From an uncultured archaeon (lineage in GTDB: Archaea; Asgardarchaeota; Thorarchaeia; Thorarchaeales; Thorarchaeaceae): a stretch of DNA of 64,000 nucleotides. Below the pieces are notes generated by a model. That model was not told the origin of the DNA and did no database searches. It saw only the letters and a program-made list of their open reading frames with translations. Numbering within the stretch: the stretch's first letter is position 1; every line of letters begins with the position of its first letter. Positions 32,364-59,747 of the stretch are shown piece after piece. The stretch spans positions 27,568 through 91,567 of the forward strand of contig CAZLEV010000009.1 of the NCBI GenBank assembly GCA_964558645.1, read 5' to 3'. A program made the position numbers and the translations under genes.

Positions 32364-32516
32364 CTCAATCAGCTCGACTGCTGTCCACAGGAGAGCAGCT
32401 TCGGAGATAAGATGCTTTCGACTTGCAGAGTCTTGCAGTCCCTTCGAAGCTTTTATCAGATAGCTTTCGTGGTGGCGCCAAGAATATCTCTGTCATCACA
32501 GGTAGATGAAGGACAA

Positions 32517-33482
32517 ATGGCAGGCAAGAAGATTCTCAAGGATTTGTACGCGCGAACCCTCAAGGTCAGGCTATTCGAAGAGGAAGTCTGGGAGATTTTT
32601 GGTAGAAATCTCGTCCCTGGTACTCTACATCTCTATCTCGGGCAAGAAGCAGTAGCCGCAGGAGTGACTGCTGCTCTAAATGAGAGCGACTGGATTCAGA
32701 GTACTCACAGAGGTCATGGACATGTGGTAGCCAAAGGAATAGATATGAAGAGGGCTATGGCTGAACTTCTTGGAAAGAAGACGGGCTCGTGTAAGGGAAA
32801 GGGCGGTTCCATGCACATCACGCAGTTCGACGCAGGGGTTCTGGGAGCCACGGGCGTTGTTGCTTCAGGACTTCCCATCGCAGTAGGTGCTGCACTCTCT
32901 TGTAAGATGAGAGGAACCGATGATGTCGTTGCATGTTTCTTCGGTGATGGTGCGTCCAATAATGGAACGTTTTGTGAATCGCTCAACATGGCTGCAATCT
33001 GGAGCCTTCCTGTCATCTGGGTGGTAGAGAACAACTTCTATGCAATGGGCACACCAATCAAGATGACATGCCCTTCGGATAACATCGCGAAGCGGGCGGA
33101 GGGATACTGTATTCCTGCAGAAGTGGTCGATGGAAACAACGCACTTGAGGTCTACGAGGCAACCAAAAAAGCGGTGGAAAGAGCCCGAAAGGGCGAAGGC
33201 CCCAGTCTGATTGAGTGCCGAACATACCGCCAGAAGGGGCACTCACGATTTGATCCCGCCAAATATCGACCGAAAGATGAGGAAGAAGAATGGTTGAGCA
33301 GAGACCCAGTTGAGATCATCAAGAAGATTGCCATCGAAGAAGGAGCTCTATCTGAGAAGGAGGCGGAGAAGATTCGCAAGAAACTCAAGGAAGAAGTCGA
33401 GAAGGCGGGAGAGTTCGCAATCGAGTCTGAGGAACCAGCACCTGAAGAGGCTCTGGATGATGTCTATGCGGAGGCGTTCTAG
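32517..33482 (+). CDS. TPP-dependent pyruvate/acetoin dehydrogenase E1 alpha
   Basis: HLYLGQEA, THRGHGH, GKGGSMH, GDGA..N..ENN, TYRQKGHS. Confidence 0.92.
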   Translation: MAGKKILKDLYARTLKVRLFEEEVWEIFGRNLVPGTLHLYLGQEAVAAGVTAALNESDWIQSTHRGHGHVVAKGIDMKRAMAELLGKKTGSCKGKGGSMHITQFDAGVLGATGVVASGLPIAVGAALSCKMRGTDDVVACFFGDGASNNGTFCESLNMAAIWSLPVIWVVENNFYAMGTPIKMTCPSDNIAKRAEGYCIPAEVVDGNNALEVYEATKKAVERARKGEGPSLIECRTYRQKGHSRFDPAKYRPKDEEEEWLSRDPVEIIKKIAIEEGALSEKEAEKIRKKLKEEVEKAGEFAIESEEPAPEEALDDVYAEAF

Positions 33483-34457
33483 ATGACAGAGAAGACATAC
33501 CGAGAAGCTCTCAGAGAGGGGCTTCGAGAAGAGATGACACGTGATGACACAGTCTTTCTGATGGGTGAGGACATTGGGAAGAACTGGGGCGGCGCGTTCA
33601 AAGTGACCAAGGGGCTTGCGGATGAATTCGGCGAGGAGCGGGTCCGCGACACTCCAATATCAGAAAACACGATAGCAGGTGCAGCGGTCGGTGCTGCCAT
33701 CACAGGCCTCCGTCCGGTGGCTGAGATCATGTTTGGAGACCTGATCACTCTGGCAATGGACCAGATATGCAATCAAGCGGCCAAGATGAGATACATGTTC
33801 GGTGGTCAGACATCTGTTCCGCTTGTACTCCGTACTGTCTTCGGGGGAGGTAAGAATATCGCATCGCACCACTCTCAGAGCCTACAGGCATGGTTCATGC
33901 ATACACCGGGCCTGAAGATCTGTGTACCTGCCTTCGCTAGTGATGTCAAAGGACTCATCAAGACAGCAATCAGAGACCCGGACCCGGTCATGTTCTTTGA
34001 ACACAAGCTTGTCTATGACAAGAAAGAAGACGTTCCGGATGATGAGTATACGATCCCCTTGGGAGAGGCGAGGATTCATCGCGAGGGTGCAGATGTAACA
34101 GTCTGGGCAACCTTCATGATGGCTCACAAAGCAATCGAAGTTGCAGATGCGCTGAACAAGGAGGGTATCAGTGTAGAGGTCATAGATCCAAGAACACTTG
34201 TACCTCTGGACAAGAAGACATTGATTGACTCGGTTAAGAAGACAGGTAGGCTTGTGTTGGTGACAGAAGAAACTAGGACAGGAGCAACAACAGCTGAGGT
34301 TTCGGCTCTGGTCCAGGAAGAAGCATTTGATTGGCTCGATTCGCCCATCCAGAGAGTTAATGCCCCCGATACCCCTGTTCCATTTAGCCCGAGTCTGGAG
34401 AACTTTTTCATTCCAGATGAGAAGAGTATCGAGAAAGCGATACGGTCAATTTTCTAG
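33483..34457 (+). CDS. 2-oxoacid/acetoin dehydrogenase E1 beta
   Basis: MGEDIG, DTPISE, GLRPVAEIMF, HHSQ, EHK, IDPRTLVPLD. Confidence 0.93.
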   Translation: MTEKTYREALREGLREEMTRDDTVFLMGEDIGKNWGGAFKVTKGLADEFGEERVRDTPISENTIAGAAVGAAITGLRPVAEIMFGDLITLAMDQICNQAAKMRYMFGGQTSVPLVLRTVFGGGKNIASHHSQSLQAWFMHTPGLKICVPAFASDVKGLIKTAIRDPDPVMFFEHKLVYDKKEDVPDDEYTIPLGEARIHREGADVTVWATFMMAHKAIEVADALNKEGISVEVIDPRTLVPLDKKTLIDSVKKTGRLVLVTEETRTGATTAEVSALVQEEAFDWLDSPIQRVNAPDTPVPFSPSLENFFIPDEKSIEKAIRSIF

Positions 34458-35956
34458 TGGCTCTGCAGAGTGAAGAAAACAGTTGTTCCAATACCCTCTT
34501 CGCTCTCAAACCATATCTCGCCCCCGTGAGCCTCGATTACCTTCTTGGCGGTGACCAGTCCTATGCCTGCACCCTCGAAGTCAGCTGCATTATGTAGTCG
34601 CTGAAATGGTTCAAAGAGGCCGTCAGCGTCTTCAGTATCAAAACCTATACCGTTGTCGCGAATGAAGAAGACCTCCGAGCCATTCTGTCTTATCACACCG
34701 AACTCAATCAGAGCGGATTCGCTCTTCTGGGTGTATTTCCATGCATTCCCAATGAGATTTGAGAGGAGAATGTGTATTAGGTCCGGATCTGCAGCTGCAT
34801 GCATTCCCTCTTCAATATCGACGGATACTTCTCTGTCAGGGCTCTGCACGGTCAAGTCCTGAATGACTTCATGCGCCATTTGCGATACATCAACCTCTTG
34901 CAGAGTGGCCGTGCGAACAGAGAGGGAAGCCAGTCTCAGAAGAGCCTCCACCAGCTGATCGACCTGATCCACACGTTCCACCATCTCCTCGATGTACTCC
35001 TCACATACCTCACTATCAGCCTTCACGCATGTGGTGCCAATCAGCTCGGCATAGCTGCGTATCACCTGTAGCGGGCTCTTGATATCGTGTGATAGTGATG
35101 CCGCGAATGCCTCAAGATCGCGATTCACCTGTTCTAGCTGTTTGACGCGGGCCTGTTCTCGTTGGACACTGACCTCCAGGTTTCGAAAGAGGCTATCGTA
35201 AGGCTTCTGAAGGCTGTTTCTGACCATTCCAACATAAAGCAGGCTGAACGAAAGCAGCTTAAGATAGTGACCGACCCAGTTCATCACGCCATACACATCG
35301 ATATACAGAGTGAAAGCGAGCTCGGAGCCCTGAGTGAGAATGATTGACAGTATCAATAATCTCCAGAGTGTAGGTTCGAACATCTCACGTTTCTGACCGT
35401 AGGCAAGAACAGCGATACAGAGGATCCCTACCACTACATATTCACTGACAATCTTGAAGAGTGTAAGGCCAACGCCCTCAATGTAACAGTCCGGGAAGAA
35501 ACCCGCGAATATCAGGACGTGAAGAACCACAGTGATCACGGCATAGCATATGAACACAGTCTGCTTGTTCGTCTTGCGTTGCACAAATCCAATGGCAACC
35601 AGAATCGAGACACTCTCAAGGTAGCGGGCGGCTATCCAAAGCTGAGTTGGTAGATTCGAGTCATACCCCGGAAAGATGCCCATTCCGCTGTAGGCAAAAG
35701 TGTGAGTGAGGTCTAACATCGCCACAAAGAGATATGCCACGCCCAAGACGAGGAAGAAACTGTATTCCGTGAATCGTTCGGTGTTCCAAGCCACTGCGAA
35801 GACCCCGAAGGCTACCAGAATCGCTGAGCACTCTACAATGACATGGAAGAGCAGGTAGCTGTACAGGCTGATTATGTAGAGCATGATACCTACCAGGGCT
35901 GCAAGAACTAAAGACCCAACGAGCCGGAGTTGGCTATGGTTCTTCATGCTCCTCAT
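34454..35956 (-). CDS. Membrane sensor histidine kinase (MASE3, HisKA, HATPase)
   Basis: YLLFH..E, D..HT.AY.GMG.F, QLWIAARY, SELAFTLY (MASE3); SHDIKSPL, NLIGNAWKY, DNGIGF, GAGIGL. Confidence 0.92.
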   Translation of the reverse strand: MRSMKNHSQLRLVGSLVLAALVGIMLYIISLYSYLLFHVIVECSAILVAFGVFAVAWNTERFTEYSFFLVLGVAYLFVAMLDLTHTFAYSGMGIFPGYDSNLPTQLWIAARYLESVSILVAIGFVQRKTNKQTVFICYAVITVVLHVLIFAGFFPDCYIEGVGLTLFKIVSEYVVVGILCIAVLAYGQKREMFEPTLWRLLILSIILTQGSELAFTLYIDVYGVMNWVGHYLKLLSFSLLYVGMVRNSLQKPYDSLFRNLEVSVQREQARVKQLEQVNRDLEAFAASLSHDIKSPLQVIRSYAELIGTTCVKADSEVCEEYIEEMVERVDQVDQLVEALLRLASLSVRTATLQEVDVSQMAHEVIQDLTVQSPDREVSVDIEEGMHAAADPDLIHILLSNLIGNAWKYTQKSESALIEFGVIRQNGSEVFFIRDNGIGFDTEDADGLFEPFQRLHNAADFEGAGIGLVTAKKVIEAHGGEIWFESEEGIGTTVFFTLQSH

Positions 35957-36148
35957 CCTTTGTTCCGCTCCCTTGGCAGTAGCGCGATATCTCGTTCACA
36001 GCCATCACCGGGATATAAGGCCTCTCGTGAGATGGAAATAGGATTGCAAAAACACAACAGTATCGTTAAATAGTTGGACCTGTCCTGAGCGAATACACTG
36101 CCCCTCAGGAATCTCAGCCCTACTAGGCTTGCTCTCGGAGGTTATCAA

Positions 36149-37372
36149 ATGGTCACAACGATGATTATGCAGAGAATGAGCGTTGCTATGGAATACGGCG
36201 TCATCCTCAAATGGCTGAAGAAGGAGGGCGAGAAGGTTGAGAAGGGTGACCCAGTGGTAGAAATCTTCGGGGAGAAGAACGAGTTCGAGCTGGAGGCACC
36301 CGAGAACGGGTTTCTGTTGAAGATTCTGTGTGATGTGGACGATGAGATACCCATTAGTGAACCAATCGCAATCATAGGCAAAAAGGGTGAAACAATTCCG
36401 GATGTCAAGCCAAAGAAGCTCAACGAAGAACAACCCTCCCCGACGGTGCCAGTGAGAGAGTCTGAAGAGAGCACTCCCGTCACGAAAACATCGAGTAGGT
36501 CCACCACCGCTACACCCCTTCCCGGGGGGCGCATTAAGGCATCACCTCGTGCCAAGAAGAAGGCCCGCGAACTGGGAGTAGATGTCTCTCTTGTCACTGG
36601 CACTGGCCCTGACGGGCGAACTGTGGAAGAAGATGTCATTCGTTTCGAGGAAACGTCTGCAGCAGCGTTAACTGATGAACGAGAAGTAAAGATGACTGAA
36701 GCTATGACTCCACTACGGCGTACCATAGCACGACGGATGACCGAGAGTTCGCACAACCCGCACATTACCATGATCACAGAGATTGACATGACCGAGGTTG
36801 TGTCGCTTCGGAGGGAGATTAACCAGCGGGTTGAGAAGACCCTCGGAATCAGAGTTTCATTCAATGATATCATTGTGAAGGCAGTTGCCGACACTCTGGA
36901 GAAGTTTCCCAAGTTTAACGCAACTCTCGTTGGAAACCAGATACGCATGTTTGCAGATATCAACATAGGAGTTGCTATGGCCACCGATGATGGCCTCATT
37001 GTTCCCGTTGTGAAGTCTGCAAATGTCAAGTCAATATCTGAGATTGCTCAGGAAACAAAGACCCTTGTTAAAAGAACGCACAACAATTCGCTTGAACCAA
37101 CTGACCTCCAAGGTGGCACATTCACTGTCTCCAATCTGGGTCCTTTCGAGGTCGACCTTTTCATTCCTGTGATAAACCCGCCAGAGACCGCAATCCTGGC
37201 TCTTGGTGCCATAAAGAAGAAACCTGTGGTCGTAGAGGACATGATTGCCATCAGACACACCATGATGGCAAGCTGTGCGGTTGATCACCGAGTCCTTGAC
37301 GGTGCTCCAGCAGGAGCGTTCTTGGCTGCTCTGAAAGACACCCTAGAGAACCCCTATTTCATGAAGATCTAG
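36149..37372 (+). CDS. Dihydrolipoamide acyltransferase E2
   Basis: Lipoyl domain (FGEKN), E1/E3-binding ASPRAKKKA..GTGPDGR, GGTFTVSNLG, DHRVLDG. Confidence 0.92.
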   Translation: MVTTMIMQRMSVAMEYGVILKWLKKEGEKVEKGDPVVEIFGEKNEFELEAPENGFLLKILCDVDDEIPISEPIAIIGKKGETIPDVKPKKLNEEQPSPTVPVRESEESTPVTKTSSRSTTATPLPGGRIKASPRAKKKARELGVDVSLVTGTGPDGRTVEEDVIRFEETSAAALTDEREVKMTEAMTPLRRTIARRMTESSHNPHITMITEIDMTEVVSLRREINQRVEKTLGIRVSFNDIIVKAVADTLEKFPKFNATLVGNQIRMFADINIGVAMATDDGLIVPVVKSANVKSISEIAQETKTLVKRTHNNSLEPTDLQGGTFTVSNLGPFEVDLFIPVINPPETAILALGAIKKKPVVVEDMIAIRHTMMASCAVDHRVLDGAPAGAFLAALKDTLENPYFMKI

Positions 37373-37409
37373 TAGAAGACATGATGGGCAGCGGCCAGTA
37401 GTAAATCAG

Positions 37410-37688
37410 CTATCCATACCGGAACTTCACACCAAAGGTGCCACGCGGGTAGTTCCAGTCCACGGCTCCGTATGGGCAGATGACTCTGCAGGTACCACAC
37501 TCAACACAATCTTCGTACTGGAATTGCATCTCGTCATCCTCATACTTGAAGCAGTTAGCGGGACAACCGACAATACAGGGCCGGTGCTTGCATTCTTCGC
37601 AAATCTCCTTTGAGATCAGGATGTGCGGATGTTCCGAATCAATCTTGTAACGCAGCAATCCCAGTTTGTCTTCAATGCGCTTCGTCAT
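37410..37688 (-). CDS. fixX: FixX-type ferredoxin
   Basis: HPHI, CPANCF, CVECGTCRVICP, WNYPRGTFGVKFRYG. Confidence 0.88.
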   Translation of the reverse strand: MTKRIEDKLGLLRYKIDSEHPHILISKEICEECKHRPCIVGCPANCFKYEDDEMQFQYEDCVECGTCRVICPYGAVDWNYPRGTFGVKFRYG

Positions 37689-38980
37689 AGGCCACGAATC
37701 AACTCCAGACCGTCTATTATCAAATGAGGAAGAGGTATGTCTGACAGGAACTTAATCATCGCGCGAGGCACGAGTCTCTGGCGGGGTACGAGGTCAGATG
37801 TGAAGGAGTCTCTGGCTAGACCCATTATCACTGAAGGATAGTCAGAATAGAGCCGGGGATTCCCGAACACAGCGGTCAGATGCTTATACGTGCTGAAGTC
37901 CTTCAGAATGAAGTTCCTCCGAAGGATTCGGTCATATTCACGGAGCGAGTCCTTTGAGAAGTCATTCTTCTTGTGCGCCTTGAGAATCGCCTTTGCAGCG
38001 GCCATACCTGAACCGATAGCGTAGTTCATCCCTTCAAACGAGAAGCCCAAGTTCAAGACTAAGCCTGCTGCGTCACCGACCACAATAATGCCATCATCAG
38101 AAAGATTCCGTATTGCACCATGGCCGCCCTCCGGAACAAGGTGAGCCGAATACTCCAGCAAGAGACCATCATGAATTGAACGGTTAACGATTGGTGTAGA
38201 CGTGAACTTGTTTATTATTTCTTTTGAATCGAGTTGGGCTCTTTGGAACCCAGTAAGGAGAACAACGACTCCTACTGACACAGATGCCCGGTTGGTGTAG
38301 AGGAATCCGCCCCCAGGAATACCACCTGTCACGCCCAAGAATGAGTGAGCAAGACCATCAGTACCAAAAAGTCCAAATCTCTCGTTTATGGTCTCCTCGG
38401 AGATACCAAATACCTCCTTAATGCCCAGAGCAACTTGGTGAGTCTCGGGCCTCTCTCTGAGACCAGCATCTTCAGCAACCAATGAGTTGACACCATCAGC
38501 GGCAATGACGACCTTAGATCGAACCACTTCGTCACCTGAGCGAATACCGACAACATGGCCGTTCTCTCTTACAACCCCGTCGACTCGAACACCCTCTACC
38601 AGCAGCGCACCTGCTTCCTCGGCCTTTGAGGCAAACCATCTGTCGAAGTCGGCTCGGAGAATTGAGAATCCATTGTAGGGTTCCTCAGCCAGAGAACCGT
38701 CGGTATAGTCTATCGTCAGGCTGGCCCCATTTTCAACCATGCTGACTCGGTGAGTCCGGATGATCCGTTCAATGGGTGCCTCCTCCCAGAATCGAGGAAT
38801 CAGTTTGTGGAGGATCCTGCCGAAAAGGACTCCGCCAGACACATTCTTATCGCCAGTCTTCTCCCCTCTTTCAATCAGGGTCACATCAAGTCCAGATTTC
38901 GCCAAGGCATATGCCGCGGCACACCCAGCAGGACCAGCACCAACAACAATCACATCAGGTTCATCAGCCAAGGAGATCAC
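37685..38980 (-). CDS. fixC: FixC-type FAD oxidoreductase (ETF-quinone oxidoreductase family)
   Basis: GAGPAG, ERG...G.KNVSGG, APIER, ADGVNS, GGGFLYTN, EYSAHLVPEGG, GDAAG. Confidence 0.88.
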   Translation of the reverse strand: MISLADEPDVIVVGAGPAGCAAAYALAKSGLDVTLIERGEKTGDKNVSGGVLFGRILHKLIPRFWEEAPIERIIRTHRVSMVENGASLTIDYTDGSLAEEPYNGFSILRADFDRWFASKAEEAGALLVEGVRVDGVVRENGHVVGIRSGDEVVRSKVVIAADGVNSLVAEDAGLRERPETHQVALGIKEVFGISEETINERFGLFGTDGLAHSFLGVTGGIPGGGFLYTNRASVSVGVVVLLTGFQRAQLDSKEIINKFTSTPIVNRSIHDGLLLEYSAHLVPEGGHGAIRNLSDDGIIVVGDAAGLVLNLGFSFEGMNYAIGSGMAAAKAILKAHKKNDFSKDSLREYDRILRRNFILKDFSTYKHLTAVFGNPRLYSDYPSVIMGLARDSFTSDLVPRQRLVPRAMIKFLSDIPLPHLIIDGLELIRGL

Positions 38981-39001
38981 TTCTTCATCGGATAGAGCAA
39001 C

Positions 39002-40504
39002 CTAGGCTCCATTGAGGTCCTCCTTGATGAGACCCGTCGTGATATCGGCGCTCATAATCACACTGGGGACACCTGCGCCAGGATGAGTTCCAGCGCCGAC
39101 CAGGTACAGTCCTTTGATGTCTCGAGAACGATTATGAGGTCTGAACCAACCTGACTGAAGGAGAATAGGACGAAGGCTGAAGCCCGTTCCCTTATACGCA
39201 TTGAATTCGGTCTTGTAGTCCTCTGGCGTGAAGATGCTCACAACATCCAGATTATCAAGAAGACCTGGCAAGACACGACTGTCAAGCGTATCGAGGATAT
39301 GATCCTTGAATTCTTCCTTCTTGTCATCCCAGTTGGTTTTTGAGTCCAAGTTGGTCACAGGTGTACAAGCGTACATGGCTTCGCATCCGGGAGGTGCAAG
39401 CTCAGGGTCTGTACGTGTGGGAATGTGAAGGTATGTTGAGAAATCATCCGGTATCACGTGGCGTTTGAAGATATCTTTGATGAGACCCTTGTAGCGGGGT
39501 CCGAAGACGATGCTATGATGTGTCATGTCGGGATACTGCTTCTTAACTCCGAAATAAAGCATGAATAGACTCATGCTGTACTTCGCCCTTCTGTATCGCC
39601 TGTCACTGTTCTTCTTCCGATGCTTACTGCTGATAAGATCCATGTAGGTGTGAGCGACATCAGCGTTTGATATCACAACGTCTGCACCATAATACTCGCC
39701 ATCTGCGGTCTCAACACCCCTGACTCGCTTACTCTCGGTGACATCAATCGAACGCACTTCAGAGTTCAGCTTGACGGTTCCACCCAGCTCTTCAAACAGC
39801 ATAGTCATGGCCTCTACAAGCTTGTGAGTGCCTCCGCGAACCCACCAAACGCCGTGTTTCTCCTCTATGTAGGTAATCAGGGTGTAGATTGCAGTTGCTT
39901 CGAATGGGTCGCCCCCTATGAAAAGAGGATTGAAAGAGAGAGCCATCCTGAGACGGGGATCCTTCACGTGACTCGCTACGAAGCCATAGACAGACTTGTA
40001 TGCCTTGTGTCGTATGCCGGCGGGTGCGACTTTCACCATGCTCAGCAGACTGTCAAAGGCCATGGAGCCAAACTTCTCAAATCCCAGTTCATAGATCGGC
40101 TTGGCCTTCTCGAGGAACTCCTTGTAACCCTCTACATCCTTCGGGTTGAAGTTGTGAACCTGCTCAATGTTGTCTTCATAGCCAGAGTAGTCCATCTGGG
40201 TCCCGTCGCTGAAATACAGACGATACTTCGGGTCGACACGCATCAGCTCCACATAGTCGGAGGTTTCCCGACCTGCTGCGTGGAATAGGTCATCAATCAG
40301 AAACGGCGGAGTGATGATAGTAGGCCCCGTGTCGAAGGTATACCCCGCCTTTCTGAATACACTTGCCCTACCACCAAGCTGACTGCGCTTTTCAAGTAGA
40401 GTCACCGGATAGCCTGTAGCTTGCATCCGAATAGCAGCCGACAGCCCCCCGAGACCTCCACCTATTACAACCACATCTTTGTCTTTTTTGTCAACGCTGG
40501 TCAA
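39002..40504 (-). CDS. crtI: Phytoene desaturase
   Basis: GGGLGGL, GYTFDTGPT, FIGGDPF, SNAD, LQSGWFRPHN, VGAGTHPGAGVP. Confidence 0.9.
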   Translation of the reverse strand: MTSVDKKDKDVVVIGGGLGGLSAAIRMQATGYPVTLLEKRSQLGGRASVFRKAGYTFDTGPTIITPPFLIDDLFHAAGRETSDYVELMRVDPKYRLYFSDGTQMDYSGYEDNIEQVHNFNPKDVEGYKEFLEKAKPIYELGFEKFGSMAFDSLLSMVKVAPAGIRHKAYKSVYGFVASHVKDPRLRMALSFNPLFIGGDPFEATAIYTLITYIEEKHGVWWVRGGTHKLVEAMTMLFEELGGTVKLNSEVRSIDVTESKRVRGVETADGEYYGADVVISNADVAHTYMDLISSKHRKKNSDRRYRRAKYSMSLFMLYFGVKKQYPDMTHHSIVFGPRYKGLIKDIFKRHVIPDDFSTYLHIPTRTDPELAPPGCEAMYACTPVTNLDSKTNWDDKKEEFKDHILDTLDSRVLPGLLDNLDVVSIFTPEDYKTEFNAYKGTGFSLRPILLQSGWFRPHNRSRDIKGLYLVGAGTHPGAGVPSVIMSADITTGLIKEDLNGA

Positions 40505-40547
40505 TCGCTCTCCTCCTTTAGATCACACCACAACTATGACATACGGC

Positions 40548-41507
40548 TTACTGGACTTCAAGCAGTTCATGCTCCTTCTTCTCCCTCATGTACTCCCGTC
40601 GGCATCTGAAAGCAATCAGGAGCTTCTTCCACTTGGGAACAACTGCCCGCTTCTTGAAGACATCATAGTCCATACTCTCAATCTCGTCCATGATTGCCGC
40701 ATACACGCTGCTGGCCACTCTCACCGTAAATGCACCTGCAGGCGGCAAGTCATCTGTCCCCACCTCTGCACGGGCGTAGATCTGCTTTGCACGGGCAATC
40801 TCGGACTTAATCATGCGTTTGAAGTTGGGACTGGCAATCTTGTTCTCGAAATCCGAACGGCTAATCCTGAACCGTTCTCGAACATCATGAGGTATGTAGA
40901 TTCTACCGTTCTCAAAATCCTCTTCGATATCTCTTAGGATGTTTGTCAGTTGAAGGGCAATTCCAAGATCCGCAGCCCTATCGAGAGTCTGTTCTTCGGT
41001 TCTGCCCCATATATGACACATCATAATCCCCACTGTCGATGCGACATGGTAGCAGTAGTCGTAGAGCTCATCTTCGTCCTTTACGTCACGTATTGAGAGG
41101 TCCATCCGTACTCCTTCAATCAGCTCATGAAGGTACTTGAGCGGGATCTTGTACTTGACCATGGTGTCACCAAAGGCTCGGAACAATGGATGTTTGAATA
41201 CCTCGCCTCGGGACAACCGGACTGCTATCTCTTTGAGGATATCCAGCTCTTTGTCAACCTGCTCTCGGGACATGTCGGTCTCATCAGCAAAATCATCCGC
41301 GAGTCGACAAAACCCATAAAGTGCCGCAAACGCTCTACGCTCAGGCTCGTCCAAATACCGCGATGCAAAATGAAAGGATCGTGCATGAAGCTTGAAGACG
41401 TTCATGCAGTAGTCATAGCTCTCCTCCAAGTCAAGAGGCTCGCTGCTTCGAGTCTCGAATACCTCTGAGGGTAGTACCGCCATGTGGGCGGTGTAATCAC
41501 TTGGCAT
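40548..41507 (-). CDS. crtB: Phytoene synthase
   Basis: SFHFAS, LYGFCRLADDFAD, YCYHVASTVG, LGIALQLTNILRDIEED, GRIYIP. Confidence 0.92.
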   Translation of the reverse strand: MPSDYTAHMAVLPSEVFETRSSEPLDLEESYDYCMNVFKLHARSFHFASRYLDEPERRAFAALYGFCRLADDFADETDMSREQVDKELDILKEIAVRLSRGEVFKHPLFRAFGDTMVKYKIPLKYLHELIEGVRMDLSIRDVKDEDELYDYCYHVASTVGIMMCHIWGRTEEQTLDRAADLGIALQLTNILRDIEEDFENGRIYIPHDVRERFRISRSDFENKIASPNFKRMIKSEIARAKQIYARAEVGTDDLPPAGAFTVRVASSVYAAIMDEIESMDYDVFKKRAVVPKWKKLLIAFRCRREYMREKKEHELLEVQ

Positions 41508-41775
41508 CTCTTATGCACACACCTCTCTCATCTACTCGCACAGAAGTCATAGCAGATTCTTTCTAAAGAACCTTCGTCATGTCCTTCACACAACCTCTTC
41601 TGCGGATTGTAGTTTTTTGCAAATGTACATTATTAAACTGTTAGTTCGTGCCCTTCAGATATTGTCGATTTCCGGTGACAGTTTTGCCGTTTCTCCGGAA
41701 TCTAAGCATGTTCTGAGTAATCGTTATTAGAAGACTGAAGCATTACGACATCCGCTCAGGGAGGCAAATGTCAGG
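41508..41775. promoter_or_regulatory. Divergent promoter region between crtB and crtD
   Basis: AT-rich 268-bp gap with palindrome AATGTACATT (41622-41631) and TATA-like tracts. Confidence 0.45.
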
Positions 41776-43242
41776 ATGAAGGTCATAATAGTTGGCGCGG
41801 GGATTGGAGGTCTCTCACTTGCAGCACTTCTAGGCAAGAGAGGACACGATGTCACAGTCATTGAGAAGAATGAACAGCCCGGAGGGCGAGCAAGAGTATG
41901 GGAGAAGGACGGTTTTGTCTTCGATATGGGGCCTTCGTGGTATCTGATGCCTGAGATATTTGATCACTACTTCGAGCATTTCGGGAAGAAGACCCAGGAC
42001 TTCTACGAGTTGATACGCCTGAACCCATCATATAGGATATTCTTCCCAGAGTCCACCCTTGACATCTCAGCAGACCTCCAGGAGAACATGGACCTCTTCG
42101 AGAGATTGGAGGAGAACGGGGCGGAAAAACTCAGGAAGTATTTGGACCAAGCTCAAGAGAAGTATGAATACTTGCTCGATGGGCTGATGTACGAGGATCT
42201 CTCGGGAATAACAGCAATGCTTAATCCCAAGTTGATGGCAGCTGGATGGAAGCTCAGTATCCTGTCAAATATCGATAAACTCACGAAGAAGTATTTCGAT
42301 AGTGAGCGTGCGAGAAAAATCCTGCAGTATTCCATCGTCTTCTTGGGTGGAAATCCAAAGAACACCCCAGCACTCTATTCGATGATCTCACACATCGACT
42401 TTAACCTGGGTGTGTGGTACCCCTACGGAGGCTTAGGCAAGATTGTAGATGCAACACTGGGTCTTGCGAAGCAGTTTGGAGTTGAGTTTCGATTTGGAGA
42501 AGAAGTCACGGATGTCGTTATCGAGGACAAGATTGCCAAGCGAGTCATCACAGACAAGGGAGAGTACGAGGGTGATGTGGTGGTATCAAATGCAGACTAT
42601 CCCCACACGGAAATTGACTTGATTGATGAAGACTACGAAACATATTCTGAAGATTACTGGGAGAGCAAGACCATTGCTCCCTCTGCCTTTGTGTTGTATC
42701 TCGGGCTTGACAAGAAGATTGATGCTCTCACCCATCACAATGTCATCTTGGATCATGATTGGGTGAAGCATTTTGAACAGATCTTCGAGAACCCCTCTTG
42801 GCCCGATGAGCCCGCCTACTATCTGTGCTGTCCATCTAGAAAGGATGACACCGTAGCCCCAGAGGGCAAAGAGAACATCTTCGTCACCATTCCTATTTCA
42901 CCGGGAATCGAAGACACCCCTTCGATTCGCGAACGCTACTTCGACAAGATTGTTTCTCATATGGAGAAGGTTCTGAGGACGGATATCAAGGACCATATCA
43001 TTGTCAAACGAATCTTCTCTCTCAACGACTTCGCTGAAGACTACAATGCATACAAGGGTACTGCAGTAGGGTTGACACATTCATTCAGACAGTCTGCATT
43101 CTTCAGACCAAGACACAAGAGCAAGAAGGTTAAGAATCTCTATTATAGCGGTCAATATACACACCCAGGCATAGGGGTTCCCATGGTGCTCATATCCGCA
43201 GAAATCGTCGCAGACCTCATCGACGAAGACTATGCAGAATGA
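41776..43242 (+). CDS. crtD: Second CrtI-family desaturase, probably carotenoid 3,4-desaturase
   Basis: GAGIGGL, FDMGPSWYLMP, FLGG.P..TPALY, GQYTHPGIGVPM. Position upstream of lyeJ-cruF matches haloarchaeal crtD. Confidence 0.8.
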   Translation: MKVIIVGAGIGGLSLAALLGKRGHDVTVIEKNEQPGGRARVWEKDGFVFDMGPSWYLMPEIFDHYFEHFGKKTQDFYELIRLNPSYRIFFPESTLDISADLQENMDLFERLEENGAEKLRKYLDQAQEKYEYLLDGLMYEDLSGITAMLNPKLMAAGWKLSILSNIDKLTKKYFDSERARKILQYSIVFLGGNPKNTPALYSMISHIDFNLGVWYPYGGLGKIVDATLGLAKQFGVEFRFGEEVTDVVIEDKIAKRVITDKGEYEGDVVVSNADYPHTEIDLIDEDYETYSEDYWESKTIAPSAFVLYLGLDKKIDALTHHNVILDHDWVKHFEQIFENPSWPDEPAYYLCCPSRKDDTVAPEGKENIFVTIPISPGIEDTPSIRERYFDKIVSHMEKVLRTDIKDHIIVKRIFSLNDFAEDYNAYKGTAVGLTHSFRQSAFFRPRHKSKKVKNLYYSGQYTHPGIGVPMVLISAEIVADLIDEDYAE

Positions 43243-43273
43243 TTGCAGCAGAAAGGATTGGTGACTAGACAGG

Positions 43274-44167
43274 ATGACAAGTCTATTGCACCTTGCATAC
43301 AGGGTATCCAGAGTGAGATTCTGGTTATATCTCGGGGGCCCATACTTGGTTGGATACATGATTGGAGTGGCTAATACGTACCTCCAGCCCGAACCATCTT
43401 TCTTAGTGCTATACGAATTTGCTGATCCGTTCTTTGTGTTACATCTTATCTACTTCATACTCCCCGCAAACATCTTTCTCTACGGAGTCAATGATATCTC
43501 CGATAAGGACACAGATGCGTTCAATCCCAAGAAGGACGACAAGGAATACCGCGCTGTCAGACAGGACGAGAGGAAGCTCTATGGACTTGTCTTCGTTTCG
43601 TTTCTCTATGGAGCAGTTCTCGTCGCATTCCAACCCACAATGGTCGCCCGATTCATCTTCCTTTCATGGATGGCCCTTTCATTCTTGTACAGTGCACCAC
43701 CACTGAGATTGAAGGCGAAACCAGCACTTGACTTCTTGAGCAATATGCTCTATGTACTTCCTGCCATCTTGGCATTTCACCACTTGACGTTTGATATTCC
43801 ACCGATCCTGCCGCTGCTCGCCGCATTCTCGTGGGCTTGGGCGATGCATCTGTTCTCTGCGATTCCTGACATCGAGGCAGACAGAAAGGCGGGCATCCAA
43901 ACGACAGCAGTAGTTCTTGGAAGGAGGCTGTCACTCTTGCTCTGTTTCATCTTCTGGACATTCTTTGCAGGAACTCTGATCTTCATCGTGCAGTGGAATC
44001 TTCCTTTCAGCCTTCTGGCACTTGTGTATCCAGCCATTCCGATGTATGTTCTTGCAAGACCAGAAACTGATATCGAGAGAGTATACTGGTACTATCCATA
44101 CTTCACGGGGTTGTTTGGAATGGTGATCTTCTTCAGCATTGGCCTTCCCTTGGTGATACCACTATGA
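43274..44167 (+). CDS. lyeJ: Lycopene elongase/hydratase (UbiA family)
   Basis: SR.RFWLYL.G, YGVND..D.DTD..NPKK, YSAPPLRLK, AMHLFSAIPDIEADR.AGI.T. Confidence 0.85.
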   Translation: MTSLLHLAYRVSRVRFWLYLGGPYLVGYMIGVANTYLQPEPSFLVLYEFADPFFVLHLIYFILPANIFLYGVNDISDKDTDAFNPKKDDKEYRAVRQDERKLYGLVFVSFLYGAVLVAFQPTMVARFIFLSWMALSFLYSAPPLRLKAKPALDFLSNMLYVLPAILAFHHLTFDIPPILPLLAAFSWAWAMHLFSAIPDIEADRKAGIQTTAVVLGRRLSLLLCFIFWTFFAGTLIFIVQWNLPFSLLALVYPAIPMYVLARPETDIERVYWYYPYFTGLFGMVIFFSIGLPLVIPL

Positions 44168-45000
44168 GCAGATTCAAGGAGGCCTTAGTCACAGGAAGAT
44201 TCGCTAAGAGGAATATCTTCTTGCTCGTCTTCTCTCTGGCATTCTTCTTGGCAAGCTGGCTCGTCGCCAACGTTAGCATCGGGGAAGCAGTGAACTGGGT
44301 ATCAGCGCTATTCATTGTGACTATTGCATTGCCATCCTACTACTACCTCATTAGATGGGCGGGAGTAAGTAAAGGGGTCACGGTGATAGTTGTTCTGGGA
44401 GCACTTCCCGTCCTCATCGAGGCCATAGGTATCACCACGGGACTGCCCTACGGAGGCTTCTACTACACAGATATGATGGGATTCAAGATTTTCAATCTCG
44501 TGCCGTGGAGCGTCGCCTTTGCATTTGGGCCGCTGGTACTAGGGACATTGTGTCTTGCAGTAGTGGCCTCGAAAGACTGGCGAGTCGTCATCCCACTCAG
44601 CGCACTGCTTCTTGTGTTCGTTGACCTTGTCCTTGATCCCGCGGCGGTTGTGCTCAACATCTGGGTGTGGACTGAGCCAGGACCATACTACGGGATACCA
44701 ATTACCAACTATACAGGATGGTTCATCACAGCTCTAGTTGCATCAGCAGTTCTACAGCTGATTCTGACAGGCACTTCAAAGAATGCAGCGGAGATTCCTG
44801 TTGAGATTGCGGGTAGCCTTCTTATCAGCTTGTCATTTTGGGCGGGGTACTCGCTATGGACGGGTCTCTGGATCCCAGTGCTAGTGGGCGCATTGATGAT
44901 AGGGGGGATACTCTATATTATCATGGTTCAAGATGTGGAGTTCGTCCCGTTAAGTGAAGTACAGAAGCCCTCTAAGCTGCGACCAAATCGTAACGACTAA
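44164..45000 (+). CDS. cruF: Carotenoid hydratase (bisanhydrobacterioruberin hydratase type)
   Basis: E.IG..TGLPYG.F.Y, D..LDP.AV....W.W, YYGIP..NY.GW. Confidence 0.85.
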   Translation: MSRFKEALVTGRFAKRNIFLLVFSLAFFLASWLVANVSIGEAVNWVSALFIVTIALPSYYYLIRWAGVSKGVTVIVVLGALPVLIEAIGITTGLPYGGFYYTDMMGFKIFNLVPWSVAFAFGPLVLGTLCLAVVASKDWRVVIPLSALLLVFVDLVLDPAAVVLNIWVWTEPGPYYGIPITNYTGWFITALVASAVLQLILTGTSKNAAEIPVEIAGSLLISLSFWAGYSLWTGLWIPVLVGALMIGGILYIIMVQDVEFVPLSEVQKPSKLRPNRND

Positions 45001-45046
45001 TAGCAGATTAGTTGAACGAATCGAAACTGGAAATGGAGAGAATCAT

Positions 45047-46072
45047 ATGTCGAAACAGTCCCCTCCAGCATCCGCTGAGAACGAACCTGAACAGAGCTCG
45101 ATGCAGCTGCTGCTCCAGAATGGGATCATTGAAGAGCGGATGCGTATGATTGATGAGTTCATTGAGGGATACTTGGAGGATAATGTCGGTGAACCCGAAG
45201 TCCTGTATGAGGCGGCATACCATCTGATACGGGCGGGAGGTAAGAGAATGAGGTCACTGATCATGGTTCTGGCATGTGAGTCGGTTGGAGGTAGGACCTT
45301 AGATGCCTTACCTCTTGCACTGGCTGCTGAACTCCTTCAAACTGCCAGTCTAATCCACGATGATATCATCGATGAAGACTCATTCCGTAGAGGCGTCAAG
45401 ACCGTACATGATGTGTTCGGAGTGAAGATGGCAATCCTTGCTGGAGACCTCCTCATCTCTCAGGCAGTGAGACTGCTAGGCAAGTATGGAAGTTCGAATC
45501 TCCTCGAGCATATGGGAGAGGGTGGAGGCAAGATGTGTGAAGGGGAGGCAACAGACCTTCTCATGAATCCACACCACGAAGAGGCCTATAACGAAGAAAC
45601 GTACCTCCGGATGATTGAGAGAAAGACTGTGGCATTTGTTGAGGAAGCAGCCAGAACAGGAGTTCTTGTCGGAGGAGGTAGTGATGAACAGATGCAGTTG
45701 CTCCTCGAATATGCTCGGTCACTTGGTTTTGCGTTTCAGATACGAGATGATATACTGGACTTGGAGGAGAACCTGACATTCTCGGGAAAGACGCACCATT
45801 CAGACCTCAGGCTACAACGGGGCAATTACGTGGTATTGTCAGCCTTGAGTATGCTTGATAACAAGGGAAGAAGAAGACTACTTGATTCCTTGCTGAACCG
45901 AGAAACCGAAGTCATTCTGGAGATGCTGAGAAAGACCCACGCAGTTCACAGAGCCCGAAGAAAAGCACAAGAATACGTGCAGCAAGCGAAGCGAGCCCTT
46001 CGCGATAGTAGTCTTGGAAATACTGATGCGCTCCTCAACATAGCCGATTTTGTTCTTGATCGCTTCCACTAG
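45047..46072 (+). CDS. Polyprenyl diphosphate synthase
   Basis: GGKRMR, ASLIHDDIID..RRG, AILAGD, KT, FQIRDDILD. Confidence 0.9.
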   Translation: MSKQSPPASAENEPEQSSMQLLLQNGIIEERMRMIDEFIEGYLEDNVGEPEVLYEAAYHLIRAGGKRMRSLIMVLACESVGGRTLDALPLALAAELLQTASLIHDDIIDEDSFRRGVKTVHDVFGVKMAILAGDLLISQAVRLLGKYGSSNLLEHMGEGGGKMCEGEATDLLMNPHHEEAYNEETYLRMIERKTVAFVEEAARTGVLVGGGSDEQMQLLLEYARSLGFAFQIRDDILDLEENLTFSGKTHHSDLRLQRGNYVVLSALSMLDNKGRRRLLDSLLNRETEVILEMLRKTHAVHRARRKAQEYVQQAKRALRDSSLGNTDALLNIADFVLDRFH

Positions 46073-46090
46073 AACTGCGCCGGAGTTAGC

Positions 46091-47161
46091 ATGATGGAAT
46101 CGCCCATTTCGGACACCAACGAAGAAGACCCGAAGAATACATCCAGGATTAAGAGCTATCTACAACTCATCAGACCACCCTTTCTCGTTGCAACTTCTCT
46201 CTCCATGATTCTCGGGACGACCATAGCCTGGGTAAGGACGGGGTCATATGACCCCTTGCTCTTTGCCATGACCATCACTGCAGGAGTACTGATTCATGCG
46301 GGGACAAACGCAAGCAATGACTACTTTGATCACCTGAGTGGAAATGATGATGTAAATCAGGACTTTGTGGCACCATATACCGGAGGGAGTCGGATGATTC
46401 AGCTTGGCAGGGTCAGCCCCTATGAGGTCCTAGCACTCTCGTTGTCTTTGCTCGCCGGGGCAATCTTCCTTGGCGCGATTCTGGCATCACTGAAGGGATA
46501 CTTCATCCTGATTCTCGGGGCGATCGGGGTCTTCTCTGGGTTCTGCTATGCGGCTCCACCTATTCGTCTAGCCAGCAGAGGCATTGGCGAACCGTTGGTT
46601 GGATTGAACTTCGGAGTTCTCCTCGTTCTCGGCGCTTACTACATTCAGACCGATTCGGTTGCCATCGAACCAATACTCGCATCCATACCCATCGCAACAA
46701 CGATAACGGCCGTCTTATGGATCAACGAATTCCCTGATTTTGCGGCAGACAAAGCTGCGGGAAAAGATACCCTCGTTGTCAGGCTTGGAACGAAGAGAGC
46801 AAGCCGTGCTTACATCATCCTAGTCTTTGCCGCCTATCTGTTGACGGTTCTCGCCATTCTTGGTAACGCAATAGCGCTCACCGCACTCCTAGCACTTTCC
46901 ACATCACCTCTTGGAATCGTAGCCGTCTACACTGCCAAGAAGTTCCATGACAGTCCGTCTAGACTGGCCCCCTCCTGTAGTGCAACTGTTGTCATGCACC
47001 TGCTTTTCGTGACTTCTCTTATCATCGGCTATCTTCTGCTTGGACTTAGTTGTGATTGGCTTGCTTTTGTCATATGCTTTGTCATCATGACTGCAACGTC
47101 TCTATTGATAGTGCTGTGGATGCGCCGACGGGCAACCATGACGCAACCAAGTGGTGCTTAA
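46091..47161 (+). CDS. menA: 1,4-dihydroxy-2-naphthoate polyprenyltransferase
   Basis: NASNDYFDHLSGND, GGSR, Y..PP.RL..RGIGE, NEFPD..AD..AGKDTLVVRLG. Confidence 0.85.
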   Translation: MMESPISDTNEEDPKNTSRIKSYLQLIRPPFLVATSLSMILGTTIAWVRTGSYDPLLFAMTITAGVLIHAGTNASNDYFDHLSGNDDVNQDFVAPYTGGSRMIQLGRVSPYEVLALSLSLLAGAIFLGAILASLKGYFILILGAIGVFSGFCYAAPPIRLASRGIGEPLVGLNFGVLLVLGAYYIQTDSVAIEPILASIPIATTITAVLWINEFPDFAADKAAGKDTLVVRLGTKRASRAYIILVFAAYLLTVLAILGNAIALTALLALSTSPLGIVAVYTAKKFHDSPSRLAPSCSATVVMHLLFVTSLIIGYLLLGLSCDWLAFVICFVIMTATSLLIVLWMRRRATMTQPSGA

Positions 47162-47386: not shown

Positions 47387-48184
47387 GTGTCATGGCGTCT
47401 TCTTGACGAGGACAGTACGGATGTATACTGGAATCTTGCTCTAGAGGAGGCCATAGCCAAAACCAATGCTGAACGAAAGTGTAAGACTAACACGCTCAGA
47501 TTCTGGCGATCCAAAGACGCCGTAGTTATGGGAAGATTGCAGTGCCTGCACAGAGAGGTTAACATTGCGTACTGCCAGCGAAACAACATAGACATGGCAC
47601 GAAGGTTTACTGGCGGAGGCACCGTCTTCCATGACCTTGGAAATCTGAATTTCGCAATCTGTGTGGATCAAAGGAAACCCTATGCGTTCAAGACCCTCCG
47701 GGAGCTCTATTGGAACTACATAGGGTTCATCGCACAGGGCCTTCGTGCAATCGGCATCAATGCAGCGTACGACGAGAGAGGGGCTTGCATAAGAGTCGCA
47801 GGATCCAAGATAACTGGGACTGCAGGCTGGGTCAAGCATGGAGTTTCATTCATCCATGGAACTCTTCTCATCGAGTCCGACCTGGATCGACTGCGAAAAT
47901 CACTCAGGGTTCTCCCAGACCAGCCGAAGTACTTCAGAGACAGAAGGAGAGTCCGATGCACGGAAAGCAAGAGAGACAGAGTCACTAGTATTGCACGTGC
48001 CGTCAGCGACAGACCTTCCGATGGTGTAATCAAGAGGGCAATAATCACAAGCATCGAGTCTCTAACGAACTGTAGAGTAGAACCGGGAATTGTGACTGAC
48101 AAGGAGCTAGAGACTGCAGAGGTTTTATATCGGCAGCGGTACAGTCAGCCGGAATGGAACATGGGCTATCCAGCCGATGAATAG
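47387..48184 (+). CDS. lplA: Lipoate-protein ligase A family
   Basis: NLALEEA, RRFTGGGTVFHDLGNLNF, KITG, HGTLL. Confidence 0.88.
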   Translation: MSWRLLDEDSTDVYWNLALEEAIAKTNAERKCKTNTLRFWRSKDAVVMGRLQCLHREVNIAYCQRNNIDMARRFTGGGTVFHDLGNLNFAICVDQRKPYAFKTLRELYWNYIGFIAQGLRAIGINAAYDERGACIRVAGSKITGTAGWVKHGVSFIHGTLLIESDLDRLRKSLRVLPDQPKYFRDRRRVRCTESKRDRVTSIARAVSDRPSDGVIKRAIITSIESLTNCRVEPGIVTDKELETAEVLYRQRYSQPEWNMGYPADE

Positions 48185-58496: not shown

Positions 58497-59747
58497 ATGA
58501 GCGTAAAGGTGCCTATGATGGTTCATGATGTAGTAATTGTTGGTACAGGTCCTGCAGGACTGATGACGGCGGAGCAGTCCGCAGCGAAGGGACTAGACAC
58601 ACTTGTTCTAGAGAAGAGGAAGAGAGTGACCGATTCGCTCATGGGGGAACTCGTGACTGACAAGGCCCTCAGAATGCTAAGGGTGAAACCGACCTCCGAG
58701 TATGTCGGAAACAAGTTCACAGCCATAATAGGAGAGAGTCTTGATACAGGGGCCAACATCGTCGTTGACAGAACCCTGCTTGGAAACTCCTATCTCTTAG
58801 ATGAGGACCGCTGTCAGGAATTGATGCGAGATAGAGCTCTTTCAGACGGAGCTGAATTCCGCTACAATAGCCGTGTTGATTCGGTGAACACGGAGAATGG
58901 CACAGTCGTCGGCGTCAGATATAACAAGACTGAGACTGCAAGAGCGGGCCTCACTGTCGGCGCAGACGGATCCTTCAGTAGGGTGTCAGCGACAGCCGGT
59001 TTTACGCACCCAAAGTGGCTTTTGAGCTACGGATATCGTTACAAACTCGCTAATTGCAAGAATGTTGACCCTGGAACGGCGTATTTCTACGTGGGAGAAG
59101 ATGTGGGCCTTGGCTATCTCTGGCTCTATCCTCGAAGTGAAACAGAGGTCAATCTCGGCATAGGAAGAGTGCCTTCCTCGGTTGAGAACTGGAATAAGCT
59201 GATGCCGATGAGAAACGTACTGGACAAATATATGCGGGAACACGAAGAAACTCGCAATGCAAAGATTGTTTCTGTGAACGGCGGAGTTGTGCCATGTGCA
59301 GGAATAATCCCAAGATTCACTGATGCGGGCGTTTCATTATGCGGTAACTCAGCAGGCCAAGTTAGTAGTATTGTTGGCGGCGGGGTTACAACTTGTCTTC
59401 ACGCAGGGAGAATGCTATCACAGCATGCAAGACGGATGACGGACAAGTCGGACTACTCCGCAAAAAGCGTCAAGCAATACGAGAAAGAGTATCGAAACAG
59501 CAAACTTGCATACAACATCACTCAGACTGGAAAGGGAATGTATGCTGTGGCCAAATACGCCATGTTCAATGATCCCATCGATGCAGCAGAGATCGTATTG
59601 GAGGAGTTGGATGCTAGGACACTCAACGAGTTGATACAGGGTACTGCAGGAATTCCTACATACATGAGCCTGTTCAGCAATTTTCTCCCGATGGTAATCA
59701 GAATCGGGGTTGGATACCTGAAGGCAATCGCAGTGAGCGGACCATAG
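58497..59747 (+). CDS. Geranylgeranyl reductase family flavoprotein
   Basis: DVVIVGTGPAG, GADG..S, GYLWLYP, GNSAGQV...GGG. Confidence 0.8.
   Translation: MSVKVPMMVHDVVIVGTGPAGLMTAEQSAAKGLDTLVLEKRKRVTDSLMGELVTDKALRMLRVKPTSEYVGNKFTAIIGESLDTGANIVVDRTLLGNSYLLDEDRCQELMRDRALSDGAEFRYNSRVDSVNTENGTVVGVRYNKTETARAGLTVGADGSFSRVSATAGFTHPKWLLSYGYRYKLANCKNVDPGTAYFYVGEDVGLGYLWLYPRSETEVNLGIGRVPSSVENWNKLMPMRNVLDKYMREHEETRNAKIVSVNGGVVPCAGIIPRFTDAGVSLCGNSAGQVSSIVGGGVTTCLHAGRMLSQHARRMTDKSDYSAKSVKQYEKEYRNSKLAYNITQTGKGMYAVAKYAMFNDPIDAAEIVLEELDARTLNELIQGTAGIPTYMSLFSNFLPMVIRIGVGYLKAIAVSGP

Follow-up and report, generated by a model that had tools for sequence, protein, structure and literature searches.

A fixCX pair beside crtB and crtI

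Within a 64,000-nt stretch of DNA (the window, whose positions serve as coordinates throughout) from a Thorarchaeota-like Asgard metagenome-assembled genome (MAG; 92.8% complete, 6.3% contamination), the carotenoid genes crtB and crtI are directly followed by fixC and fixX, which encode a two-protein electron-transfer module otherwise known from electron-transferring flavoprotein (ETF) systems. All four genes lie on the minus strand. While crtB (40548..41507) encodes a 319-aa protein of the squalene/phytoene synthase family (PF00494, SQS_PSY, 248 bits) that reaches no NCBIfam equivalog cut-off, crtI (39002..40504) encodes a 500-aa protein of the phytoene desaturase family (TIGR02734, 603.4 bits against a cut-off of 238.1). 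The product of fixC (37685..38980) is a 431-aa flavin adenine dinucleotide (FAD) flavoprotein homologous to EtfC/FixC, the quinone-reducing subunit, and that of fixX (37410..37688) is a 92-aa EtfX-type ferredoxin-like protein with cysteines for two [4Fe-4S] clusters. According to the open reading frame (ORF) table, the spacers from crtB to fixX are 43 bp, 21 bp, and -4 bp, the last corresponding to a 4-nt ATGA overlap of the fixC stop and the fixX start that can be read directly in the sequence; furthermore, the TTG start of crtI is preceded by an AGGAGG motif. The original prediction, made from the DNA alone, had claimed this co-oriented arrangement with its spacing, a lack of fixAB or other ETF genes, and a divergent operon ending in genes for a polyprenyl synthase and MenA. 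All of this is borne out by the ORF table and the sequence: the window contains no ETF gene, both matches of the genome to PF01012 being on another contig (C2), and the divergent operon, crtD-lyeJ-cruF, ends in a polyprenyl synthase gene and a MenA-like gene.

The adjacency of crtI and fixCX is not an assembly artefact, since contigs from three public sequencing runs bridge the junctions from the neighboring E2 acyltransferase gene through fixX and fixC to crtI (X1, 36000-40479; X2, 37556-39212; X3, 37192-37862), and since the same order is found in other genomes. The bridging runs are marine and freshwater sediment metagenomes, with X1 perhaps representing the source sample. The ratio of nonsynonymous to synonymous substitution rates (dN/dS) relative to a congener (G001; G, C, and L numbers are our handles for genomes, contigs, and loci) lies in the range 0.05-0.20 across the eleven genes tested and is 0.05-0.10 for fixX, fixC, crtI, and crtB, with fixX at 0.05.

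Judged by their sequences, FixC and FixX are true homologs of EtfC and EtfX and not geranylgeranyl reductases (GGRs). The best PDB match of FixC is EtfC of Thermotoga maritima (7KOE_C; E 7.9e-77, residues 7-387), as compared to only E 1.4e-15 for the GGR structure 3OZ2, and the best PDB match of FixX is EtfX from the same complex (7KOE_D; E 5e-31). Among family models, FixC scores about 377 bits with NF007450 and NF007542, the former spanning residues 6-425 and remaining under its cut-off of 466, and FixX scores 79 bits with NF011993, also under the cut-off. The GGR model TIGR02032 gives 129.8 bits for FixC (cut-off 158.8) and MenJ gives 70 bits, while the quinone-binding domain PF21162 gives 24.8 bits (cut-off 27.7) and is among the precomputed family matches of many near FixC homologs. 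All 9 cysteines of FixX are invariant in the 19 FixX sequences of the clade described below. The motif YxWxFP, a substrate/catalytic motif of GGRs (PMC10821996), occurs in all three GGR-like paralogs of the same genome as opposed to none of 75 FixC rows (including all 17 rows of the clade), and FixC of the window carries the FixC-type GGGFLY at the equivalent position. The similarity to EtfCX, the invariant cysteines, the motif test, and the low dN/dS thus argue for an intact electron-transfer module under selection rather than a GGR.

Linkage to crtBI is conserved in an Asgard FixC clade

The linkage of fixCX to crtBI is not a peculiarity of this genome, as had been considered possible, and is conserved across two Asgard families. 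The nearest FixC homologs are labeled Thorarchaeota, Promethearchaeota, Hodarchaeota, or Hermodarchaeota in their source records. FixC was found in 65 of 400 Asgard genomes (E<=1e-60), with a bimodal distribution of identity scores: one form, 44-100% identical to the query and hereafter called the clade, is present in 19 genomes (5 Thor-like, family f1, and 14 Hermod-like, family f12), and the other, 36-43% identical, in 46. We examined the loci of all 19 clade genomes (20 loci, one contig being represented twice) and of 27 of the 46 other Asgard genomes, with neighbors identified by local tblastn. None of the 20 clade loci adjoins etfAB, whereas etfAB lies beside FixC in 95 of 106 non-clade loci (25 of 27 from Asgard genomes, and 70 of 79 among the species-representative matches listed). 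Among the metagenome matches listed, 62 of 80 FixC loci are ETF-linked and none of the 80 is crt-linked. Within the clade, crtB-crtI-fixC-fixX is contiguous in 11 of the 19 genomes (Thor-like G000, G001, G392, and G393; Hermod-like G035, G128, G129, G130, G131, G136, and G138), always on one strand and with about 20 to 140 bp separating crtI from fixC, although the FixC sequences have diverged by roughly 50%. Two further genomes have crtI farther from fixCX but still on its contig (5.6 kb away in G141 and 10.8 kb in G139). As the neighbor of fixCX, crtBI has taken the place of etfAB in this clade.

In a maximum-likelihood tree of 56 FixC rows, rooted on the GGR-like paralogs of the genome under study, the 17 clade rows (from 17 genomes) form one group (ultrafast bootstrap 100, Shimodaira-Hasegawa-like approximate likelihood ratio test 99), within which Thor rows (98/95) and Hermod rows separate; a quick 78-row tree agrees. 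G128 and G134 are absent from the trees on account of short contigs or a partial gene and were placed in the clade by identity and FixX similarity. CrtI orthologs from Thor and Hermod genomes are 60-96% identical, and the CrtI tree likewise resolves Thor and Hermod clades as sisters, which fits a co-inheritance of FixC and CrtI. In the simplest history, the union of fixCX and crtBI predates the split of the two island lineages, or fixCX travelled between them together with the island.

The ETF pair of the genome is distal and of a different type

FixC and FixX resemble the Fix/EtfABCX system of Thermotoga maritima (7KOE) and FixABCX of Azotobacter and E. coli in being EtfC/EtfX homologs with the cluster cysteines kept, fixC and fixX overlapping here. 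They differ in that fixAB is found beside none of the 20 clade loci, that the genome holds no FixAB-type ETF, and that the pair follows crtB-crtI in an operon-like unit. The only ETF pair of the genome lies on contig C2 (L032:8783-10777; two PF01012 matches). Its EtfA is a 400-aa protein with an N-terminal 4Fe-4S ferredoxin domain, to which none of 94 FixC-adjacent EtfA proteins align, the lowest query start being residue 55; the FixC-adjacent EtfA proteins of Asgard loci are 28-45% identical to the ferredoxin-fused EtfA. Of 24 genomes sampled from the family, 21 have this ferredoxin-fused type while FixC is present in just 2, which argues that the ETF is independent of FixCX. One EtfBA pair is present in the genome under study and in G001, G009, and G035. 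Among Hermod genomes, 17 of 19 have such a pair, of the ferredoxin-fused type, and these comprise all 14 that encode clade FixC. Where canonical fixABCX occurs in Asgard genomes (e.g., in G028), by comparison, a second ETF pair adjoins fixCX. Since the ETF that remains in the clade is of a different type, we conclude that the clade has lost its cognate FixAB. The original prediction had named an ETF-linked FixC with etfAB elsewhere in the genome as the case that would speak against it; an ETF pair is indeed found on C2, but it is ferredoxin-fused and unlike FixC-adjacent EtfA.

The genes neighboring the ETF pair on C2 give no clue to its partner. A longer FixC homolog from an ENA metagenome (P0122, 834 aa) includes PF01012 in its Pfam list, i.e., it is an ETF-FixC fusion.

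The divergent carotenoid genes and ids-menA

The 268-bp intergenic region between crtB and crtD (41508..41775) presumably holds both predicted promoters. On the plus strand, it is followed by a gene for a crtD/CrtID-type carotenoid 3,4-desaturase (41776..43242; NF058655, 684 bits against a cut-off of 640), a LyeJ-like UbiA prenyltransferase of the lycopene elongase type (43274..44167; 288 bits against a cut-off of 205 with NF009516, which we take to be the model of the LyeJ type), and a cruF-like carotenoid hydratase (44164..45000; PF04240, 147 bits; TIGR03460, 122.5 bits, below the cut-off of 154.7). The last two genes of this operon are ids (44954..46072, plus strand), encoding a trans-polyprenyl diphosphate synthase whose nearest models are short-chain IdsA/geranylgeranyl diphosphate synthase, and a gene for a MenA-like UbiA prenyltransferase (46091..47161, plus strand), which narrowly passes TIGR00751 (106.5 bits, cut-off 102.15) and is below the cut-offs of other MenA models. 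A second polyprenyl synthase, 31% identical to Ids, is encoded on contig C5.

The island can be described as a haloarchaeal-type, bacterioruberin-like carotenoid cluster of a Thorarchaeota-like anaerobe, with its product predicted from gene content. It shares with the bacterioruberin genes of Haloarcula japonica (Yang et al. 2015, as cited in PMC9258230) the gene set and the orientation of crtBI divergent from crtD-lyeJ-cruF, with the CrtID and LyeJ-type models scoring above their cut-offs. In contrast to the haloarchaeal cluster, the host is an Asgard anaerobe in whose genome no oxidase was found, CruF remains below its NCBIfam cut-off, and the island adds fixCX as well as, in its own genus and one other, ids-menA.

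The genome has one copy of the MenA-like gene. The gene also occurs in 62 of the 85 other family genomes and in 144 of the 400 phylum genomes, its distribution across the family being independent of crt or fixCX. We considered whether ids-menA is specific to the island and rejected this, as other Thor and Hermod genomes keep the two genes as a conserved pair at a site away from the island, and the pair lies at the island only in the genera of G000/G001/G002 and of G392/G393. As these genera may share the arrangement by descent, the co-occurrence of ids-menA and fixCX at the island represents at most one or two events.

Other members of the clade and one metagenome contig offer independent hints that clade FixCX is linked to quinones. 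G143, in which no crtI was found, has the order menA-ids-Pyr_redox_2-fixX-fixC, and in the G137-type Hermod subclade a DoxD-like gene follows fixX with an HdrD-like (CCG-domain) gene nearby. The metagenome contig Ga0155959_164 (L253) carries etfB-etfA-fixC-fixX-menA-ids on one strand, i.e., a canonical fixABCX followed by quinone prenylation genes. Regarding the respiratory genes of the genome under study, a NuoH-like subunit is present, and neither a cytochrome bd nor a heme-copper oxidase was found.

At four menA loci (L174, L178, L181, and L183, from G345, G008, G139, and G137, respectively), a GGR-like gene, whose product is 24-27% identical to FixC, lies about 0.5 to 7.7 kb from ids-menA. 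This suggests, for the Thor and Hermod families, a prenylquinone whose short side chain is partly saturated. In the window, a GGR-like paralog is encoded at 58497-59747 on the plus strand and is 24% identical to FixC over residues 9-362.

A possible electron outlet for CrtI

To our knowledge, it is not settled how strict anaerobes re-oxidize the FAD of CrtI in vivo. We tentatively propose, with a chance that we would put somewhat short of even, that FixCX serves as an accessory connection, independent of oxygen, between CrtI and the quinone pool. In this mechanism, the reduced FAD of CrtI would replace ETF as the donor to FixCX, FixCX would link phytoene desaturation to a membrane pool of low-potential prenylquinone, and CrtI, perhaps together with CrtD, would turn over through FixCX without O2. 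Such a link would be useful to the island without being essential, which would explain the repeated loss of fixCX. Phrased for the clade as a whole, and again as a suggestion that is rather less than an even bet, FixC and FixX may have swapped their ETF donor for a CrtI-type desaturase, either passing CrtI electrons to prenylquinone or draining the quinol that CrtI makes. We infer which protein FixCX partners with, which way the electrons flow, which quinone takes part, and what re-oxidizes the quinol. The precedents for the two halves of the mechanism come from different systems. The CRTI of Pantoea ananatis, a CrtI-family FAD desaturase as well, is inactive under N2, and its reduced flavin needs an acceptor, with quinones replacing O2 and naphthoquinones doing so less well than benzoquinones (PMC3382138). 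In the parts of that study drawn on here, the acceptors named are O2 and quinones only, with no protein carrier, whereas crtI of the island shares its operon with genes for a two-protein electron-transfer module. In EtfABCX, the electron-transferring FAD (ET-FAD) hands electrons to the two [4Fe-4S] clusters of EtfX, from which they reach the FAD of EtfC and then menaquinone (PMC10734219).

Several results weigh against a role of FixCX as the outlet for CrtI electrons. Pantoea CRTI reduces quinones directly in vitro (PMC3382138), and a mediator is therefore not strictly needed. Among 20 Thor genomes with a CrtI ortholog (at least 69% identity, partial genes counted), 15 have no FixC at E<=1e-60. 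In these FixC-less genomes, the island occupies the same chromosomal site, with the E2 gene directly beside crtI (a gap of 34-79 bp in G003, G018, G351, G360, and G344, and of 376 bp in G014) and with cruF followed by the ligase gene without ids-menA between them, so fixCX represents an insertion/deletion polymorphism of the island. Moreover, no CrtI alignment column separates 10 fixCX-adjacent CrtI sequences from 13 CrtI sequences of FixC-less genomes, so that nothing points to a docking surface dedicated to FixCX on CrtI, and, as a weaker point, no CrtI-FixC fusion was found, the amine oxidase domain of CrtI being absent from all 3 longer proteins and an ETF domain present in one. On the quinone side, the genome shows no MqnA/D of the futalosine route (no match to PF02621), its best scores for MenB (157.6, cut-off 342.7) and MenD (56, cut-off 244) are both below the cut-offs, and no enzyme re-oxidizing quinol was identified in it. 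Lastly, every clade genome checked keeps an ETF pair elsewhere. The notion of a self-contained module, as originally put forward, consequently has to be given up in view of the 15 of 20 Thor islands without FixC, the conservation of the ids-menA pair elsewhere, the lack of a 1,4-dihydroxy-2-naphthoate pathway or quinol oxidase in the genome, and the distal ETF.

Four other explanations have to be weighed against this proposal. FixCX could still serve the ferredoxin-fused EtfAB located elsewhere, acting either as an ordinary ETF:quinone oxidoreductase or as a bifurcating EtfABCX, and lie near crtBI for co-regulation (e.g., in a stress or pigment regulon) or because of the history of the island. 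We consider this unlikely, though well worth keeping in mind: EtfBA pairs accompany FixCX in the genome under study, in G001, G009, and G035, and in 17 of 19 Hermod genomes with all 14 that have clade FixC among them; the clade is nested among ETF-linked FixC with a short stem branch (0.18); CrtI bears no signature of the fixCX linkage; and in G139, genes for a photolyase, a peroxiredoxin, and a rhodopsin lie between crtI and fixCX, and the neighborhood can therefore be a broader light or stress island. However, the ferredoxin-fused ETF occurs in 21 of 24 family genomes with FixC in only 2, its ferredoxin domain is aligned by 0 of 94 FixC-adjacent EtfA proteins, fixABCX-bearing Asgard genomes such as G028 have a separate ETF pair by fixCX, and 11 genomes retain the tight spacing of crtI and fixC (about 20 to 140 bp). 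Alternatively, FixCX might work in reverse. CrtI and CrtD would then reduce quinone directly, and the quinol would be re-oxidized by FixCX, perhaps in confurcation with the ferredoxin-fused ETF. The reaction of EtfABCX is near equilibrium and reversible. In a genome in which no terminal oxidase was found, the reverse reaction would give an anaerobe an electron outlet, and it would agree with the direct reduction of quinones by CRTI (PMC3382138), with the lack of detectable adaptation of CrtI to FixCX, and with the presence of an ETF in the genome. Yet that ETF is not of the FixAB type, the oxidation of quinol via low-potential clusters would be uphill without coupling, and the FixC-less relatives with the same island would have no such outlet, which makes the reverse direction improbable in our view.

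We are more doubtful still that FixC acts as a C=C reductase of the carotenoid or of a prenyl chain, receiving its electrons from FixX, in the manner of the GGR-family protein CruI. The YxWxFP motif is found in none of the 75 FixC rows, FixC of the window having GGGFLY in its place, the similarity to EtfC (7.9e-77) is far above that to GGR (1.4e-15), the stem branch of the clade is short, and clade members without crt genes sit by quinone-linked genes; in addition, we know of no reduction step in the bacterioruberin pathway. In favor of such an activity, FixC is distantly related to GGRs (TIGR02032, 130 bits; MenJ, 70 bits), the patchy, accessory distribution of FixCX would fit a tailoring step, and a GGR of Methanosarcina works with an adjacent ferredoxin. 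CruI itself, a paralog of BchP, is a carotenoid 1,2-reductase (PMC6166724); it shares with archaeal GGRs and FixC a wide flavoprotein superfamily whose CruI and GGR members act on isoprenoids, some with an adjoining ferredoxin gene (PMC6166724, PMC10821996), while FixC lacks YxWxFP and resembles EtfC instead of GGR. That the adjacency of crtI and fixCX is due to chance or an artefact, without functional meaning, is hardly credible and is already contradicted by its conservation: although MAGs can be chimeric, and CrtI and FixC of G137 fall into different subclades, the same order is found in 11 genomes of two families, contigs of three sequencing runs bridge the junctions, the genes are under purifying selection, and ETF adjacency is seen at 0 of 20 loci in the clade compared to 95 of 106 elsewhere (among the loci listed).

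We describe a known electron-transfer module in a new and conserved pathway context, in which its function is a prediction from sequence. No paper describing a crtI-fixCX linkage was found, though supplementary gene tables of Asgard genome papers may mention it. A review of archaeal GGR paralogs places FixC-superfamily paralogs beside ETF or ferredoxin genes and, in the portion drawn on here, none beside crtBI (PMC10821996). If FixCX accepts electrons from CrtI or drains the quinol that CrtI makes, it would give anaerobic relatives of the eukaryote ancestor a protein route dedicated to phytoene desaturation without oxygen and would widen the donor range of the FixCX/ETF:quinone oxidoreductase family. 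A conserved operon of crtBI and a two-protein quinone reductase without the usual ETF neighbor is in any case a testable candidate for how an anaerobe could dispose of desaturation electrons. Moreover, the haloarchaeal-type carotenoid islands of Thor- and Hermod-like Asgard archaea come in several structural variants, which bears on the membrane biology and habitat of these archaea.

Flanking genes and observations at other loci

The island is embedded in a 2-oxoacid dehydrogenase/lipoylation neighborhood (window positions 32412-37372 and 47387-48184). To its left lie genes for E1 alpha, E1 beta, a MASE3 histidine kinase (34454-35956, minus strand), and the E2 acyltransferase of the 2-oxoacid dehydrogenase complex (36149..37372, plus strand), and its right flank is formed by a gene for a lipoate-protein ligase (47387..48184, plus strand). 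The same flanking genes border the island in other Thor genomes.

In G139, the 10.8 kb from crtI to fixCX (contig C2 of that genome, L165:10302-18298 with L039) encode PNPOx-like, photolyase, Staygreen, peroxiredoxin, and fasciclin proteins and a 212-aa rhodopsin, together with NmrA-like/DUF2867, HdrD-like, and DoxD-like proteins, and the stretch looks like a light and oxidative-stress island. The photolyase family had no match in the genome under study, a 92.8%-complete MAG. FixC of G137 groups with a Hermod subclade without crt adjacency, and CrtI of G137, encoded on an 11-kb contig, groups with the crt-adjacent subclade; G137 may be a mixed MAG.

Two genomes of family f18, G102 (L172) and G111 (L170), hold two crtB-crtI pairs, or two CrtI paralogs, close together; these CrtI paralogs are 49-55% identical to the query and have no fixCX beside them. 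Outside the Asgard archaea, a polyprenyl synthase gene is located about 1 to 1.5 kb downstream of fixCX at three loci (L093, L105, and L111) in MAGs of Spirochaetaceae, Treponema, and Eubacteriales. The three loci belong to one FixC subclade, and two of them are without adjoining etfAB, with etfAB of L105 lying 3.3 kb away on the opposite strand.

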